From Mycolicibacterium smegmatis (GTDB taxonomy: Bacteria; Actinomycetota; Actinomycetes; Mycobacteriales; Mycobacteriaceae): a stretch of DNA of 32,000 nt. The stretch is taken from assembly GCF_001457595.1 (NCBI RefSeq), contig NZ_LN831039.1, positions 4,260,001 through 4,292,000 on the forward strand, written 5' to 3'. Under the pieces are notes generated by a model. It did not search any database. It saw nothing but the letters and a program-made list of their open reading frames with translations, and was not told the DNA's origin. Made by a program: the position numbers and the translations under genes. Position 1 is the first letter of the stretch, and each line of letters opens with the position of its first letter. This document shows positions 13,779 through 17,000 of the stretch, piece by piece.

Positions 13779-15110
13779 TCAGTTGAGGCCACCGGCAGTC
13801 GCCACCACCCACGCGAGCTCGTCGTGGAAGATGTCGCTGTGCGCCCCGGACGGCCCGGCATCGGCCTTGACGACCTCTGACGCATCCAGGTTCAGGATCT
13901 TCCCTGCCTCGAACGGATACTGCGCCCCCACCGCGCCGAGGCCCAAGCTCTCCGATCGGAACGCCCCGTGTGAGCCCATCGCGCGCCACCGGAACAGTGG
14001 ATCGTCGAGGCCCGCGGCGTCGTCACCGACCGCGGCCGACGCAAGCGGGTAGAACGTGCTCAGAGCGCGGTCGTGGCGCGAAAAGCACACCGTGAGTGGG
14101 CCGTCGACGCGCCCGAGCAGCCCGGCGAGTGCTCCCGCCCCGTCCCGGAACGGCAGCCGGTCGATGAACGAGAACCGAGAGAACGCGCCCTGTAGCAGCG
14201 TGACCGATTTGACCGGCGACGGCTGGGCGCCGGACATGCCCGCCAGCGCGTAGCACACCAACCGTGCGCCGAAACTGTGCCCCACCAAGTGGATTCGCAA
14301 CCCCGGCGCGCTTCGGGCCAGTTTGTCGATGACGGGTCCGAGGCCGTTCTTGCCCACCACGCCCGCACGGTTCTTCATCTTCCAGTAGCTCAGCTGCCGC
14401 AGCGCCTCCTTGGCGCCGCGCCAAAGCTTGCCCGCGAAGTCGCCGAGCCCCGCTGCGCCGGTGCCGTCGTCACCGAACTGCACCCCCGCAGAGAGCAACT
14501 GGTCGGCGAAGGTGTTGAACAACTCGGCCGGATCCTGATCGTCGGCGACCATCCCCGGACCGTCCTGGGTGTCCTCGGTTTCGCCGTCGTCGAATCCGTC
14601 CGGCGTGGCCTTGTGGAAATCCTGCAGGGCCTCGAACAGATCGGGCACGGCGTCGACGTCGGGCGGTTGGGCGAGCAGCGCCGCGAGGGTGTCCAGTTGT
14701 TGCTCGGCCGTCGGGAACAGCTGCTTGAGTTCGGCGAGCTCCTGTGGGTCCAGGGCCGGGTTCCCGGCATCGGAGTCGGCAGCCACTTCACGAGCACCGC
14801 CGAGCGCGGCAGCGCCCTCGGCGCCGCCTGCGGGGGTGGCCGGGAAGTCCGGTATCGGCTCGTCCCGCCACAGCGTCGAGGGCCAGCGCACGCCCACGAA
14901 TCCCACGTTGCGCGCGGGGTCGAGGTGCGGTGCCAGCAGACGGAACCAGCGGTCGTACAACAACGTTGCGGCCGCCTCGTCGTTGTTCCAGCCGTGCGAG
15001 AAGATCACCAGATCGGTGAGACCTGGCAGCCGCTGCTCCAGATCGGTCAGCGTCATCGGATCGGGGTGGCCCTCGGCGTCGAACACCAGAGGGGCGATCT
15101 GGGCAGTCAT
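13779..15110 (-). CDS. Cytoplasmic alpha/beta-fold serine hydrolase (DUF900/PGAP1-like esterase) with large acidic insertion
   Basis: The N-terminal strand reads LVIFSHGWNN, and the nucleophile elbow is IHLVGHSFGARL (GxSxG). Candidate acid and His residues are FSRHD and GAHSDIF near the C-terminus. There is no signal peptide or TM segment. An SD-like AAAGG lies 7 nt before the ATG at 15108-15110, which is 15 nt after the S8 gene's stop. Confidence 0.75.
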   Translation of the reverse strand: MTAQIAPLVFDAEGHPDPMTLTDLEQRLPGLTDLVIFSHGWNNDEAAATLLYDRWFRLLAPHLDPARNVGFVGVRWPSTLWRDEPIPDFPATPAGGAEGAAALGGAREVAADSDAGNPALDPQELAELKQLFPTAEQQLDTLAALLAQPPDVDAVPDLFEALQDFHKATPDGFDDGETEDTQDGPGMVADDQDPAELFNTFADQLLSAGVQFGDDGTGAAGLGDFAGKLWRGAKEALRQLSYWKMKNRAGVVGKNGLGPVIDKLARSAPGLRIHLVGHSFGARLVCYALAGMSGAQPSPVKSVTLLQGAFSRFSFIDRLPFRDGAGALAGLLGRVDGPLTVCFSRHDRALSTFYPLASAAVGDDAAGLDDPLFRWRAMGSHGAFRSESLGLGAVGAQYPFEAGKILNLDASEVVKADAGPSGAHSDIFHDELAWVVATAGGLN

Positions 15111-15125
15111 GTCATGCCTTTCTGG

Positions 15126-17000
15126 TCATACCGATTGCAGGGCACGCAGCAGGTCCACCAGACCGCTGCCCTGGAACGACCGGTCGCGTCCCAGCGACGT
15201 CGCGGACTCGGTGAAGATCCGCTTGACGGCCTCGGGCCTGCTGACGAATTCGCGTTGCACCGACAGGAACGCCGCGACCGCGCCCGACACATGCGGTGCG
15301 GCCATGCTGGTGCCGCTCTCCTCGATGTAGACCGGCACGCCGTCGGGCACGTCGATCTGGTTGGTCACGGTGCTGCGGCGCGTCCCGGCAGCCGCTGACG
15401 TGATGCGCTCGCCCGGTGCCACGAGGTCGGGTTTGGCGCGGCCGTCGCCGGTCGGCCCGCGCGACGAGAAGTACGAGACGCCGAATGTGTGCGGCGAACT
15501 GCGATGGGTGGATCCCACGGTGATGGCGCTCTCGGTGTTGCCGGGATCGTTGATGGTCATGTCGGCCGTGAACTTCATCGAGTCCTTGCTCGACGCGACG
15601 TTGAGCGACACATAGCCGGAGTTGCCTGCCGCGACCACCACGACGACACCCGAGCGCACGGTCTTGTCGACCTCCACGCACAGCGGGCTCTGGCCGCATG
15701 CGTACCACTTGGCGTCGAACGGATATCCCAGGCTGAGGTTGACGCCGTGGATTCGCGGCACGCGTTCGCTGCCTGCGTTGAGCTCCCGGACGTATGCCAG
15801 CGCCGCCATCACACGGCTGACCCTCGACACGTGATCACCGGGACCGAGCACCTTGAGGCTCACGAGCTTCGCCCTGGGCGCCATGCCCGCGAGCCGGTCG
15901 GGATCGACCTCGCGCGGCTGCATGATGGCATCGCCGCCTTCCGGGGCGTTGAGCCGTTTCTCGGCGACAACGACTTTGCCGGTCCAGCCGACGAGTCCGC
16001 CGGCGATGATGCCCGCGACGTGGGTGCCGTGCCCGTCGGTGTCGGTCAGCGGGGCTGCGCCACCGGTGAAATCGCGGTGGAGGTCTGCGACTGACGGGTG
16101 GTCGAGATTCTGGTGCGCGGCGAAGTGCGGATGCCTCTTTTCGATGCCCGAATCCACGACGGCCCATACGATTCCGTCGCCGAAACTGTCGAAGGACCGT
16201 TGCGCGGCGACCGCTTTGACGGTGCGTGAGGACGCATCGATCAACGGCTGTACCTCGAAGTCCGGCCAGATCCGGTAGATGGCGCGCGCCGGCCAGATCT
16301 GCGGCACCGCATCGGCGGACACCAACTGTTTGATCTGGGCCGCGGTCAGATCACCGACCATGAACTGATCGGCGAGGTCGCCCGGTTCCCCTGCCGCGCC
16401 GATCAGTGCCCACAGGTTCCGGACCCGATCTCTCGCCGCCTGCGCCGTCGGCTGGAACCCCAGGTTGAGCTCGATCATGATCGGAATCGGGCGCTCGTCG
16501 GGCACCTCGGCCATCCGCTCACGCAGCGGCGGTGTGACGACACCGGCGAGGACGGGATCGCGCCGTGGACGTTCGTCGCGTGCGGGCCGCGGGGTGAGGG
16601 CCCGCCCGGCCGGGACCGTCCTGGTCGTCTTCTCGGCTTCGCCGGCGTCCTGGGCACAGGCCCGTTCGGCCGCGCGGCGCCCGGACTCGGTCAACGCGAT
16701 CTCCTGGGGTCTGCCCTTGTTCTTCGCAATGAGCAGGCGGCGCCTGCGGAGTTGACGTACGGCGTCGTCGACGCGGTTGTGCCAGAACGGCCGGTTGTTC
16801 TCGTATTGACGGTCACGTTCGACGAACTCCGCCGCGTAACGCGCCGCCACGGCCTCTTTGAGGGTCGCGGCGTCCGTCGGGTGTTGCTCGAGGCCGTCAA
16901 GCGTGGCCAGTGCGCAAAGCACCCGCGACGGCCACCTCGATGACTCGGTCGAATCAGTCTCGTCCACAACGGCCCCCTCGGCACGGATCCGATGGCTCAT
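15126..17000 (-). CDS. Intracellular S8 (subtilisin-like) serine peptidase with N-terminal Mrr_N-like winged-helix domain
   Basis: The catalytic triad is WAVVDSGIEKRHP (Asp), DGHGTHVAGIIAGG (His) and GTSMAAPHVSGAVAAFL (Ser), with oxyanion Asn in VNLSLG. There is no signal peptide. The N-terminal ~115 aa align by eye with the E. coli Mrr N-terminal wHTH (details in the findings). The ATG at 17000 lacks an SD. A GTG at 16967 preceded by GAGGGG is an alternative start. Confidence 0.88.
   Translation of the reverse strand: MSHRIRAEGAVVDETDSTESSRWPSRVLCALATLDGLEQHPTDAATLKEAVAARYAAEFVERDRQYENNRPFWHNRVDDAVRQLRRRRLLIAKNKGRPQEIALTESGRRAAERACAQDAGEAEKTTRTVPAGRALTPRPARDERPRRDPVLAGVVTPPLRERMAEVPDERPIPIMIELNLGFQPTAQAARDRVRNLWALIGAAGEPGDLADQFMVGDLTAAQIKQLVSADAVPQIWPARAIYRIWPDFEVQPLIDASSRTVKAVAAQRSFDSFGDGIVWAVVDSGIEKRHPHFAAHQNLDHPSVADLHRDFTGGAAPLTDTDGHGTHVAGIIAGGLVGWTGKVVVAEKRLNAPEGGDAIMQPREVDPDRLAGMAPRAKLVSLKVLGPGDHVSRVSRVMAALAYVRELNAGSERVPRIHGVNLSLGYPFDAKWYACGQSPLCVEVDKTVRSGVVVVVAAGNSGYVSLNVASSKDSMKFTADMTINDPGNTESAITVGSTHRSSPHTFGVSYFSSRGPTGDGRAKPDLVAPGERITSAAAGTRRSTVTNQIDVPDGVPVYIEESGTSMAAPHVSGAVAAFLSVQREFVSRPEAVKRIFTESATSLGRDRSFQGSGLVDLLRALQSV

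Follow-up and report, generated by a model that had tools for sequence, protein, structure and literature searches.

A subtilase gene and an alpha/beta-hydrolase gene paired in Mycolicibacterium smegmatis: a candidate protease-gated hydrolase zymogen

We analysed a 32,000-nt stretch of Mycolicibacterium smegmatis DNA (NCBI RefSeq assembly GCF_001457595.1, contig NZ_LN831039.1, positions 4,260,001 to 4,292,000 of the forward strand; "the window" below, with coordinates counted from its first nucleotide) in which a gene for a subtilase of peptidase family S8 and a gene for a serine hydrolase of the alpha/beta-hydrolase fold lie one behind the other beside a tRNA gene. The initial annotation, made from the sequence alone, had described two minus-strand genes 15 nt apart with an AAAGG Shine-Dalgarno sequence in the gap, and both the open reading frame (ORF) calls and the junction sequence (...GTA TGA CCAGAAAGGCATGAC ATG...) confirm it. 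The arrangement is as follows.

15126-17000, minus strand: S8 subtilase gene, an ORF of 624 aa whose start is M1 or V12
15111-15125, minus strand: spacer of 15 nt from the S8 stop to the hydrolase ATG, with the AAAGG Shine-Dalgarno sequence
13779-15110, minus strand: alpha/beta-hydrolase gene, an ORF of 443 aa
13651-13737, plus strand: tRNA-Leu(GAG)

The hydrolase shows 100% identity to its counterpart in M. smegmatis mc2 155, and the S8 protein is present in M. smegmatis assemblies, with public annotations that disagree on its length (624, 613 or 598 aa); the 598-aa start used by several RefSeq records is disfavoured because W23 and R26 are invariant. Neither protein has an N-terminal export signal or a transmembrane segment, as had been claimed: in a hydropathy scan the highest windows of both are core beta-strands. 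We describe below a hydrolase family that is paired with three classes of protease, and we argue that in M. smegmatis the subtilase may be the activator of a latent hydrolase.

The S8 protein is built from three domains, placed in the window as follows.

16620-16949, minus strand: winged helix-turn-helix (wHTH) domain, about residues 18-127, from the AlphaFold2 (AF2) model and Foldseek
16245-16553, minus strand: I9-type propeptide-like domain, about residues 150-252, from the AF2 fold and Foldseek
15177-16181, minus strand: S8 catalytic domain, residues 274-608, with D283, H324, N460 and S565

Residues 274-608 match Peptidase_S8 with E=9.5e-42 (143.7 bits against a cutoff of 21.8), and the complete Asp/His/Ser triad with its oxyanion Asn, noted initially, is fully upheld, D283, H324, S565 and N460 being invariant across 32 homologs. 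The PADLOC "subtilase" model, which presumably derives from the gasdermin system, matches S8 at E=1.2e-48 through the C-terminal part of its profile only (positions 169-388 of 391). The N-terminal extension, put at about 190 aa in the initial annotation, has to be redrawn, as about 270 aa precede the catalytic domain and form two domains. The first of these is modelled with high confidence (predicted local distance difference test score, pLDDT, 85-96) as helices, a beta-hairpin and a long helix, and Foldseek aligns it separately with MarR-family proteins and with SSV1 F-93. Of the "Mrr_N-like winged helix" proposed for it, the winged helix stands, whereas Mrr_N (PF14338) scores below threshold in the window protein (E=0.03, 14.9 bits, gathering threshold 29.5) and matches 5 of the 32 S8 homologs, at best with E=8.4e-6; the domain is, as modelled, wHTH-like, its membership of Mrr_N being unproven.

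The second domain is a b-a-b-b-a-b-b unit in the AF2 model (pLDDT about 90) with no Pfam sequence match, so that it is assigned by fold alone. The best whole-model matches of S8 in the PDB are unprocessed pro-subtilisins (450-480 aligned columns, Foldseek E down to 6e-11), and these alignments take in both the prodomain and the catalytic domain. The order of wHTH, I9-like prodomain and S8 domain therefore gives the protease a zymogen-like layout, which it shares with pro-subtilisins and the intracellular subtilisin protease (ISP) of B. clausii: like Tk-subtilisin and pro-subtilisin E, S8 has an I9-type prodomain followed by an S8 domain with an intact triad, but it differs from them in its additional wHTH, its cytoplasmic location, its dedicated, substrate-like hydrolase neighbour and an identity of just 17-22%.

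The hydrolase is only partly covered by a known family: DUF900 (PF05990) matches residues 253-351 to profile positions 76-168 of 232, with E=1.2e-5 and 25.3 bits against a gathering threshold of 20.5, and precomputed Pfam matches are missing from most of its homologs. Its catalytic residues are readily located.

14274-14276, minus strand: hydrolase nucleophile S279 (GHSFG)
14070-14072, minus strand: hydrolase D347
13839-13841, minus strand: hydrolase H424

The serine-hydrolase motifs recognised in the initial annotation prove to be genuine, since HGW39-41, S279, D347 and H424 are invariant across the four phyla compared, as are a WPS and an MKxRA motif. Structural matches of the hydrolase model are weak and fall on lipases, cutinases, LCAT and PLA1; a recent report describes one DUF900-type hydrolase as a bactericidal phospholipase. 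With 2,812 representatives of 50%-identity clusters at E ≤ 1e-3, the family of the M. smegmatis hydrolase is a large one. Many of its records bear the database name "serine-threonine protein kinase"; as no domain of that kind can be detected, the name is evidently a propagated misannotation. No NCBIfam match was obtained for the hydrolase, for its C25 partners described below, or for the catalase-like protein and haem peroxidase encoded near it.

That the two genes form a co-conserved adjacent pair is borne out by a genome survey. A scan with the hydrolase alignment, taking one genome per species, gave 80 loci. Those from Mycobacteriales, Actinoplanes, Arthrobacter and a metagenome-assembled genome (MAG) of Acidobacteriota, plus one from Streptomyces, include 13 with upstream DNA, and in all 13 of these the hydrolase gene is immediately preceded by the end of an S8 gene. 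When flanking ORFs were clustered, S8 and the hydrolase were the only recurring genes, the flanks being variable outside close Mycolicibacterium relatives. The order S8 then hydrolase is also found on plasmids of Burkholderia, Rhizobium johnstonii (pRL11) and Rhodococcus; a protease lies within 500 nt of the hydrolase in seven of eight plasmid loci, and in the eighth (L087) CHAT and C25-like genes lie 1.5-2.3 kb off in the same gene string. On one of these plasmids, Rhodococcus rhodochrous pNit (L081, 3903-5870), S8 appears to be split into a 508-aa hypothetical protein without a Pfam match and a 146-aa ORF for the S8 C-terminus, probably by a frameshift or as a pseudogene. The distribution of the pair is patchy, its surroundings differ between phyla and plasmids, and no slow-growing pathogenic mycobacteria are among the 120 closest matches listed for either protein.

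The S8 proteins encoded beside these hydrolases resemble one another across phyla. A hidden Markov model (HMM) built on the catalytic domain of mycobacterial S8 proteins finds partners from other phyla with E from 1e-128 to 1e-205, and an HMM of the I9-like domain matches every full-length S8 partner, those of Proteobacteria and Acidobacteriota included. Across 15 pairs, pairwise identity among the S8 proteins closely tracks that among the hydrolases (Mantel r=0.86; 0 of 5000 permutations reached this value). Judged from these sequences, the hydrolase-associated S8 proteins appear to be a dedicated lineage that co-diverges with its hydrolases, pair by pair, across phyla. The prodomain and the catalytic domain always accompany the hydrolase; a wHTH was detected for only some of the S8 partners. 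The suggestion that the wHTH reads a nucleic-acid cue stays speculative for this reason, and as a constant part of the system such a sensor has to be given up; in the mycobacterial lineage the wHTH may be a regulatory or sensor domain of S8. A search of the intergenic region 17001-17296 for an operator-like palindrome found no strong one, only a single weak 11-nt inverted repeat, and we rejected an operator for the wHTH at this place.

Distant members of the hydrolase family (24-38% identity) keep every signature residue and stand beside proteases of other classes: C25-like cysteine peptidases in Sinorhizobium and Nostoc, and, in Planktothrix and Bradyrhizobium, CHAT proteases, of which the one from Planktothrix is fused to an nSTAND1 NTPase. 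Another 80 loci came from metagenomes, scanned with a distant hydrolase as the lead; 24 of them have flanks too short to judge, and in the 56 informative loci a protease is adjacent or fused in every case (56/56). Tallied by HMMs built from Pfam-verified seeds, the adjacent partners are 31 C25-like, 12 CHAT, one locus with both and one S8, and fusion ORFs (eight hydrolase-CHAT and three hydrolase-C25) occur at 11 loci at least, as proteins of 960-1317 aa in which Pfam places CHAT or C25 at the C-terminus. Many distant loci are tripartite, with a large CHAT-HEAT protein, the hydrolase and a C25-like peptidase; in L128, L137, L145 and L162/L163, for example, the CHAT protein with HEAT repeats has 1150-1270 aa and the hydrolase stands between two caspase-fold proteases. 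One hydrolase family is paired, then, with three protease classes (S8, C25-like and CHAT), and it is the protease, not the hydrolase, that bears the variable sensor-like domains (wHTH, STAND, HEAT).

Outside one clade of Streptomyces the hydrolase is almost always linked to a protease. That clade comprises 59 loci (L012-L080) with no protease within 10 kb. Its hydrolase gene begins 4-7 nt after the gene for NamZ, an exo-beta-N-acetylmuramidase, with which it is apparently co-transcribed, and a penicillin amidase gene follows (e.g. L021, 8615-11263). The Streptomyces proteins retain an intact triad and have lost both of the loop motifs described next; this branch may have been domesticated for a role related to the cell wall.

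The AF2 model of the hydrolase shows beta1-beta4 (residues 1-78) parted from beta5 and the nucleophile (from residue 272) by a helical insert, and the loops that flank this insert (residues 80-114 and 213-221) have a pLDDT below 50. The same short motif, GAAxL, is present on both sides of the insert.

14802-14816, minus strand: predicted S8 cleavage or recognition site 1, G99-A-A-A-L103, a conserved motif in a disordered loop
14460-14801, minus strand: acidic helical insert between beta4 and beta5, residues 104-217, from the AF2 secondary structure
14439-14459, minus strand: predicted S8 cleavage or recognition site 2, G218-A-A-G-L222-G-D224, a conserved motif in a disordered loop

Both motifs stand amid otherwise variable sequence, and the insert that they bracket is itself variable across the family. 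Among 137 S8-linked homologs the columns of site 1, G99-A-A-(A/G)-L103, are conserved at 94/80/94/90 (62+28)/82%, and those of site 2, G218-(A/G)-A-G-L222-G-D, at 96/73/93/89/80/74/90%. S8-linked hydrolases from different phyla keep a small-small-hydrophobic motif at both sites; the lone S8-linked Streptomyces hydrolase (L018) has DDAASF at both, so the two sites have changed together within a single protein. In the protease-less Streptomyces clade site 1 is gapped in 95-98% of the sequences and site 2 is mostly gapped, as judged from the alignment and not from regular-expression windows. The borders of the insert also differ with the class of the protease: xSF[G/D] occurs at both borders in 50% of the C25-linked hydrolases versus 0-6% of the other classes, and hLL[S/G/D] at both borders in 44% of the CHAT-linked hydrolases versus 0% elsewhere, counts that are exploratory because the regular expressions were defined after inspection of the data.

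The two GAAxL motifs are, from their sequence context, candidate cleavage sites for S8. Cuts after L103 and L222 would yield an N-terminal fragment of 11.3 kDa (computed pI 4.5), a middle fragment, residues 104-222, of 12.3 kDa (pI 4.1, with 27 acidic and 3 basic residues) and a C-terminal fragment of 23.2 kDa (pI 9.4). The insert would then be the core of a predicted removable inhibitory fragment, which in full (104-222) extends into site 2.

A published module offers the closest parallel. According to Kaur et al. 2020 (PMC7159879), there are conflict systems in which caspase-superfamily domains are invariably accompanied by an adjacent alpha/beta-hydrolase gene, and Evans et al. (bioRxiv, Nov 2025; PMC12642450) reported that the protease-associated LcHydrolase of Lysobacter capsici is a zymogen which the caspase-like LcCaspase cuts at two R|G sites, R73 and R117; HHpred matched LcHydrolase to lipases and oligopeptidases. 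The initial annotation had taken the M. smegmatis cassette for an undescribed one, and this cannot be maintained for the pairing as such, which was predicted in 2020 and of which one such pair was tested in 2025. In both cases the lipase-like hydrolase is always encoded beside a protease and the sensor-like domains sit on the protease; the middle fragment of LcHydrolase is dispensable and lies after the N-terminal strands and before the part that bears the nucleophile, the C-terminal one, and the GAAxL motifs take equivalent positions here; and the module is reported to be widespread in Actinobacteria and Pseudomonadota, as is the hydrolase we describe. The differences are that the partner there is caspase-like and here an S8 protease with an I9-like prodomain and a wHTH, that LcHydrolase has about 297 aa and a 44-aa fragment where the present protein has about 440 aa and an insert of about 120 aa, and that R|G sites there face candidate GAAxL sites here. 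We looked for LcHydrolase-like cleavage sites and rejected them, as the family has no conserved R-G. Relative to the Evans and Kaur descriptions the S8 partner with its wHTH and the large insert are new; the preprint ties subtilisin-like proteases to a metallo-beta-lactamase (MBL) effector only, and mentions neither a wHTH nor mycobacteria (PMC12642450). The S8/wHTH version is a new variant of the hydrolase module in the sense that we found no description of it in the literature searched.

Other systems with an S8 protease are further away. Gasdermin systems (Johnson et al. 2022), together with the fungal HET-Q1/HET-Q2 pair and its subtilisin, likewise place a latent effector beside an exchangeable protease, which may be caspase-like, CHAT or a subtilase, and the label "subtilase" is in use for gasdermin-associated proteases; their effector, however, is a pore-forming gasdermin, whereas here it is an enzyme of the alpha/beta-hydrolase fold. 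We rejected a gasdermin-protease system on this ground, the neighbour being an alpha/beta-hydrolase and having no PADLOC match. IetAS (IetS and IetA; Gao et al. 2020), which the initial annotation had offered as a comparable system, also has a cytoplasmic S8 protease, and the PADLOC IetS model matches with E=9e-16, but the match takes in no more than part of the catalytic domain and the partner here is a hydrolase in place of the IetA ATPase; with 44.4 bits for NF042956 against a cutoff of 900 and no adjacent ATPase gene, IetAS was rejected and is not a close relative. A type VII mycosin was rejected too: TIGR03921 scores 92.4 bits against 278.75, and there is neither a signal peptide nor a transmembrane anchor, in agreement with the earlier remark that a mycosin-type anchor is absent.

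The explanation that we favour, and hold to be fairly probable, is that the locus encodes a subtilase-gated hydrolase zymogen, a latent death enzyme activated by its protease. The hydrolase would be made as an inactive zymogen, kept so by the acidic helical insert of about 12 kDa at beta4/beta5, where the lid and the active-site entrance form, and S8 would be held in check by its I9-type prodomain. A putative trigger would free S8 from the prodomain; active S8 would cut the hydrolase at the G-A-A-(A/G)-L sites, at about residue 103 and about residue 222; the acidic middle fragment would leave; and the N-terminal (about 11 kDa) and basic C-terminal (about 23 kDa, pI 9.4) fragments would assemble as an active esterase or lipase. 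This enzyme would harm the cell, probably by way of membrane lipids or other esters, and the cell would stop growing or die, plausibly in abortive-infection immunity or in some other regulated death response. The initial annotation had already suggested that the protease could activate the hydrolase, and the CHAT and C25 fusions, the class-specific duplicated motifs and the double cleavage of LcHydrolase lend support to this idea. What the analysis shows is the pairing and the fusions, the conservation of both active sites, the folds of the prodomain and the wHTH, and the duplicated motifs; cleavage with its direction and sites, toxicity, substrate, trigger and any part in phage defence are what we infer.

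The genomic setting bears on this explanation in several ways. The initial annotation had seen accessory cargo at a tRNA gene, and the adjacency to tRNA-Leu is real, but the tRNA 3' end is not repeated elsewhere in the window even when up to 3 mismatches are allowed, no integrase turned up in domain scans of the large ORFs nearby, and the GC content is uniform and host-like with no shift at the locus, which moreover is syntenic in M. senegalense and M. brisbanense. A tRNA-integrated genomic island, which would call for an att repeat, an integrase and a GC shift, was rejected; the uniform GC, the missing integrase and the missing tRNA repeat mark the pair as an old resident of the M. fortuitum-smegmatis group and not a fresh island. 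Carriage of the module by phages was rejected as well, since neither a set of 50,697 phage genomes nor the IMG/VR contigs gave a homolog. Of eight more S8-linked neighbourhoods that we sampled, three have defence or mobile neighbours: in L170 CBASS (a cyclic-oligonucleotide-based antiphage signalling system) lies near the S8-hydrolase pair; in L171 (6876-12234) genes for Peptidase_C14 (caspase), S8 and the hydrolase follow one another co-directionally, with a PIN/RHH toxin-antitoxin pair nearby, an order that may reflect a two-protease cascade upstream of the hydrolase; and in L176 the pair is surrounded by genes for an integrase, an SMC-like AAA_23 ATPase, RES and PLD.

Several observations weigh against a protease-gated death enzyme with a role in defence. 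The M. smegmatis locus does not lie in a defence island, as its metabolic neighbours, its synteny and its host-like GC attest; four of the eight sampled neighbourhoods are plainly metabolic, and that of Nocardia arizonensis (L174, 7329-8633) has a P450 gene directly upstream and co-directional and no defence genes. The absence of homologs from phages gives no support for mobility, and we regard it as neutral on a defence role. The intact triad of the protease-less Streptomyces clade means that the hydrolase need not be a death effector. On the side of the protease, AF2 modelled the S8 catalytic domain poorly, and the wHTH is dispensable in many S8 partners. PADLOC has no model that matches the hydrolase, its C25 partners or the fusions. 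The conserved R-G pairs of LcHydrolase have no counterpart in this family, the likeness to LcHydrolase in logic and topology being drawn from its published description, and the C25 and CHAT motif counts are exploratory, as said above. Cleavage by S8 and toxicity of the product would follow the Lysobacter module by analogy.

The neighbouring genes of the window open a further line of argument. Upstream of S8 lie the following.

17297-18412, plus strand: catalase-related haemoprotein gene, 371 aa, divergent from the S8 gene; possibly accessory and not part of the core
18268-21111, plus strand: gene for a LuxR-family STAND regulator, 947 aa, with AAA_16, TPR and GerE domains
21117-25181, minus strand: fusion of molybdopterin oxidoreductase, flavodoxin and FAD/NAD-binding parts, 1354 aa

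The fusion protein resembles, we presume, the NasN-type assimilatory nitrate reductase of M. smegmatis; together with the LuxR-type STAND regulator, pyrD, a PEBP protein and an M20 peptidase, this NasN-like reductase makes up the other neighbours of the pair. A literature search on presumed locus tags brought up one incidental mention: MSMEG_4202, a tag tentatively placed here, is reported to be up-regulated by G-quadruplex ligands. If it began at its first ATG, the LuxR-STAND gene would run over the last 145 nt or so of the catalase-like gene, and its true start is therefore probably further downstream. We rejected it as a component of the system, as among the loci examined it is shared with M. 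brisbanense alone.

The product of 17297-18412 is named "catalase family protein" by NCBI and has no Pfam or NCBIfam match; its profile finds 3E4W/3E4Y as the best PDB entries (E=0.003), followed by true catalases and coral allene oxide synthase. In M. senegalense and M. brisbanense a gene of the PF03098 "animal haem peroxidase" family stands between the catalase-like homolog and S8. Catalase-related and PF03098 genes adjoin the pair in the Mycolicibacterium loci L001 (4915-8276) and L003 (4765-7745); in a MAG (L007, 3930-8101) the genes for peroxidase, catalase-like protein, S8 and hydrolase form a co-directional row of four; and a PF03098 peroxidase gene lies upstream of the hydrolase on a Nostoc plasmid (L082, 3153-4937) and on a metagenome contig (L166, 947-3382), so that PF03098 genes accompany the module in four independent lineages (Mycolicibacterium, L007, L082 and L166). 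No PF03098 remnant was found in the M. smegmatis window, and a haem-peroxidase remnant there was rejected. The P450 of the Nocardia locus L174 is another haem oxygenase that adjoins the module.

Nostoc punctiforme reportedly carries a tandem of a cyclooxygenase-like (COX-like) 10S-dioxygenase and a catalase-related hydroperoxide lyase, said to have been described by Brash and colleagues in 2014. The combination of PF03098 and catalase-related genes in L001, L003 and L007 is like this tandem, whereas the M. smegmatis window has its catalase-like half alone. The recurring haem enzymes could point to lipids as the substrate of the hydrolase, which might possibly release fatty acids. It is conceivable, at rather long odds in our estimation, that a protease-gated (phospho)lipase feeds a COX-like dioxygenase and a catalase-related enzyme, with oxylipins or lipid peroxides as death or alarm signals; if true, bacteria would here have an equivalent of the eukaryotic PLA2-COX and lipase-lipoxygenase-allene oxide synthase immune lipid pathways, and M. 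smegmatis would carry a reduced form of this bacterial cascade made up of S8, the hydrolase and the catalase-related gene.

These neighbours also permit a reading in which the locus is no immune system at all and instead a regulated module for lipid release and oxylipin formation, of which M. smegmatis retains only the catalase-related gene. Here the protease would license a lipase, and a COX-like dioxygenase and a hydroperoxide-converting enzyme would oxidise the freed fatty acids to signals. Such a role would account for the PF03098 genes in four independent lineages, the four-gene string of L007, the catalase-related divergent neighbour in the window (3E4W as best match at E=0.003), the P450 directly upstream in Nocardia L174 and the structural resemblance of the hydrolase to lipases, LCAT and PLA1. 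Haem enzymes, however, occur in only about 6 of about 100 protease-linked loci and are accessory at best for that reason; M. smegmatis has no dioxygenase, mycobacteria make few polyunsaturated fatty acids, and the catalase assignment is weak (E=0.003, no Pfam or NCBIfam match). An oxylipin role would also leave the STAND-fused CHAT partners and the published toxicity of the analogue unexplained, and it is compatible with a zymogen and does not exclude one. We consider it unlikely.

Adjacency and fusion show that protease and hydrolase are functionally coupled and leave the direction of the coupling free, so that both enzymes might act on a third substrate, such as a lipopeptide, a lipoprotein or a cell-wall precursor, or the polarity might be reversed, with the hydrolase modifying or activating the protease. 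NamZ (at a 4-7 nt gap) and penicillin amidase in Streptomyces hint at a cell-wall or acyl-amide substrate, and LcHydrolase matched oligopeptidases as well in HHpred. Yet the loop motifs of the hydrolase vary with the class of the protease and are lost where there is none, as expected of a protease substrate; the sensor-like wHTH, STAND and HEAT domains are on the protease, not on the hydrolase; and LcHydrolase is cleaved by its own protease, all of which makes joint action or reversed polarity seem improbable to us. A plain housekeeping operon, in which the wHTH-subtilisin autoregulates its transcription and the esterase is metabolic, with no conflict or death function in M. smegmatis, would suit a chromosomal locus of host-like GC that is syntenic in the M. 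fortuitum-smegmatis group and has metabolic neighbours in M. smegmatis, as well as the four of eight sampled contexts that are metabolic, the fifth that lacks defence neighbours and the Streptomyces clade that has the hydrolase without a protease; wHTH domains, moreover, are commonly those of transcription factors. It fits poorly with a patchy distribution and flanks that vary across phyla and plasmids, with protease classes that are exchanged and fused to the hydrolase, with partners fused to STAND NTPases, with the lack of a strong operator-like palindrome in 17001-17296 and with the lack of slow-growing pathogenic mycobacteria among the 120 closest matches listed for either protein, and we regard it as very unlikely indeed.

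The licensing of death effectors by proteases is coming into view as a dominant logic of bacterial immunity, one that is paralleled by the caspase-gasdermin and caspase-CAD pathways of animals, and among such effectors the alpha/beta-hydrolase module is one of the most abundant. In the literature searched we did not find the use by one hydrolase family of three protease classes with class-specific loop motifs, the protease-less Streptomyces branch beside the cell-wall recycling enzyme NamZ, or the recurrence of COX-like and catalase-related haem enzymes beside the module. A subtilase-gated hydrolase zymogen would place the subtilase-driven version of the module in M. smegmatis, a genetically tractable organism for which a large collection of mycobacteriophages exists, and the locus yields specific predictions for it: cuts at the GAAxL motifs around residues 103 and 222, an acidic fragment that inhibits the enzyme and can be removed, and a catalytic fragment that is basic.

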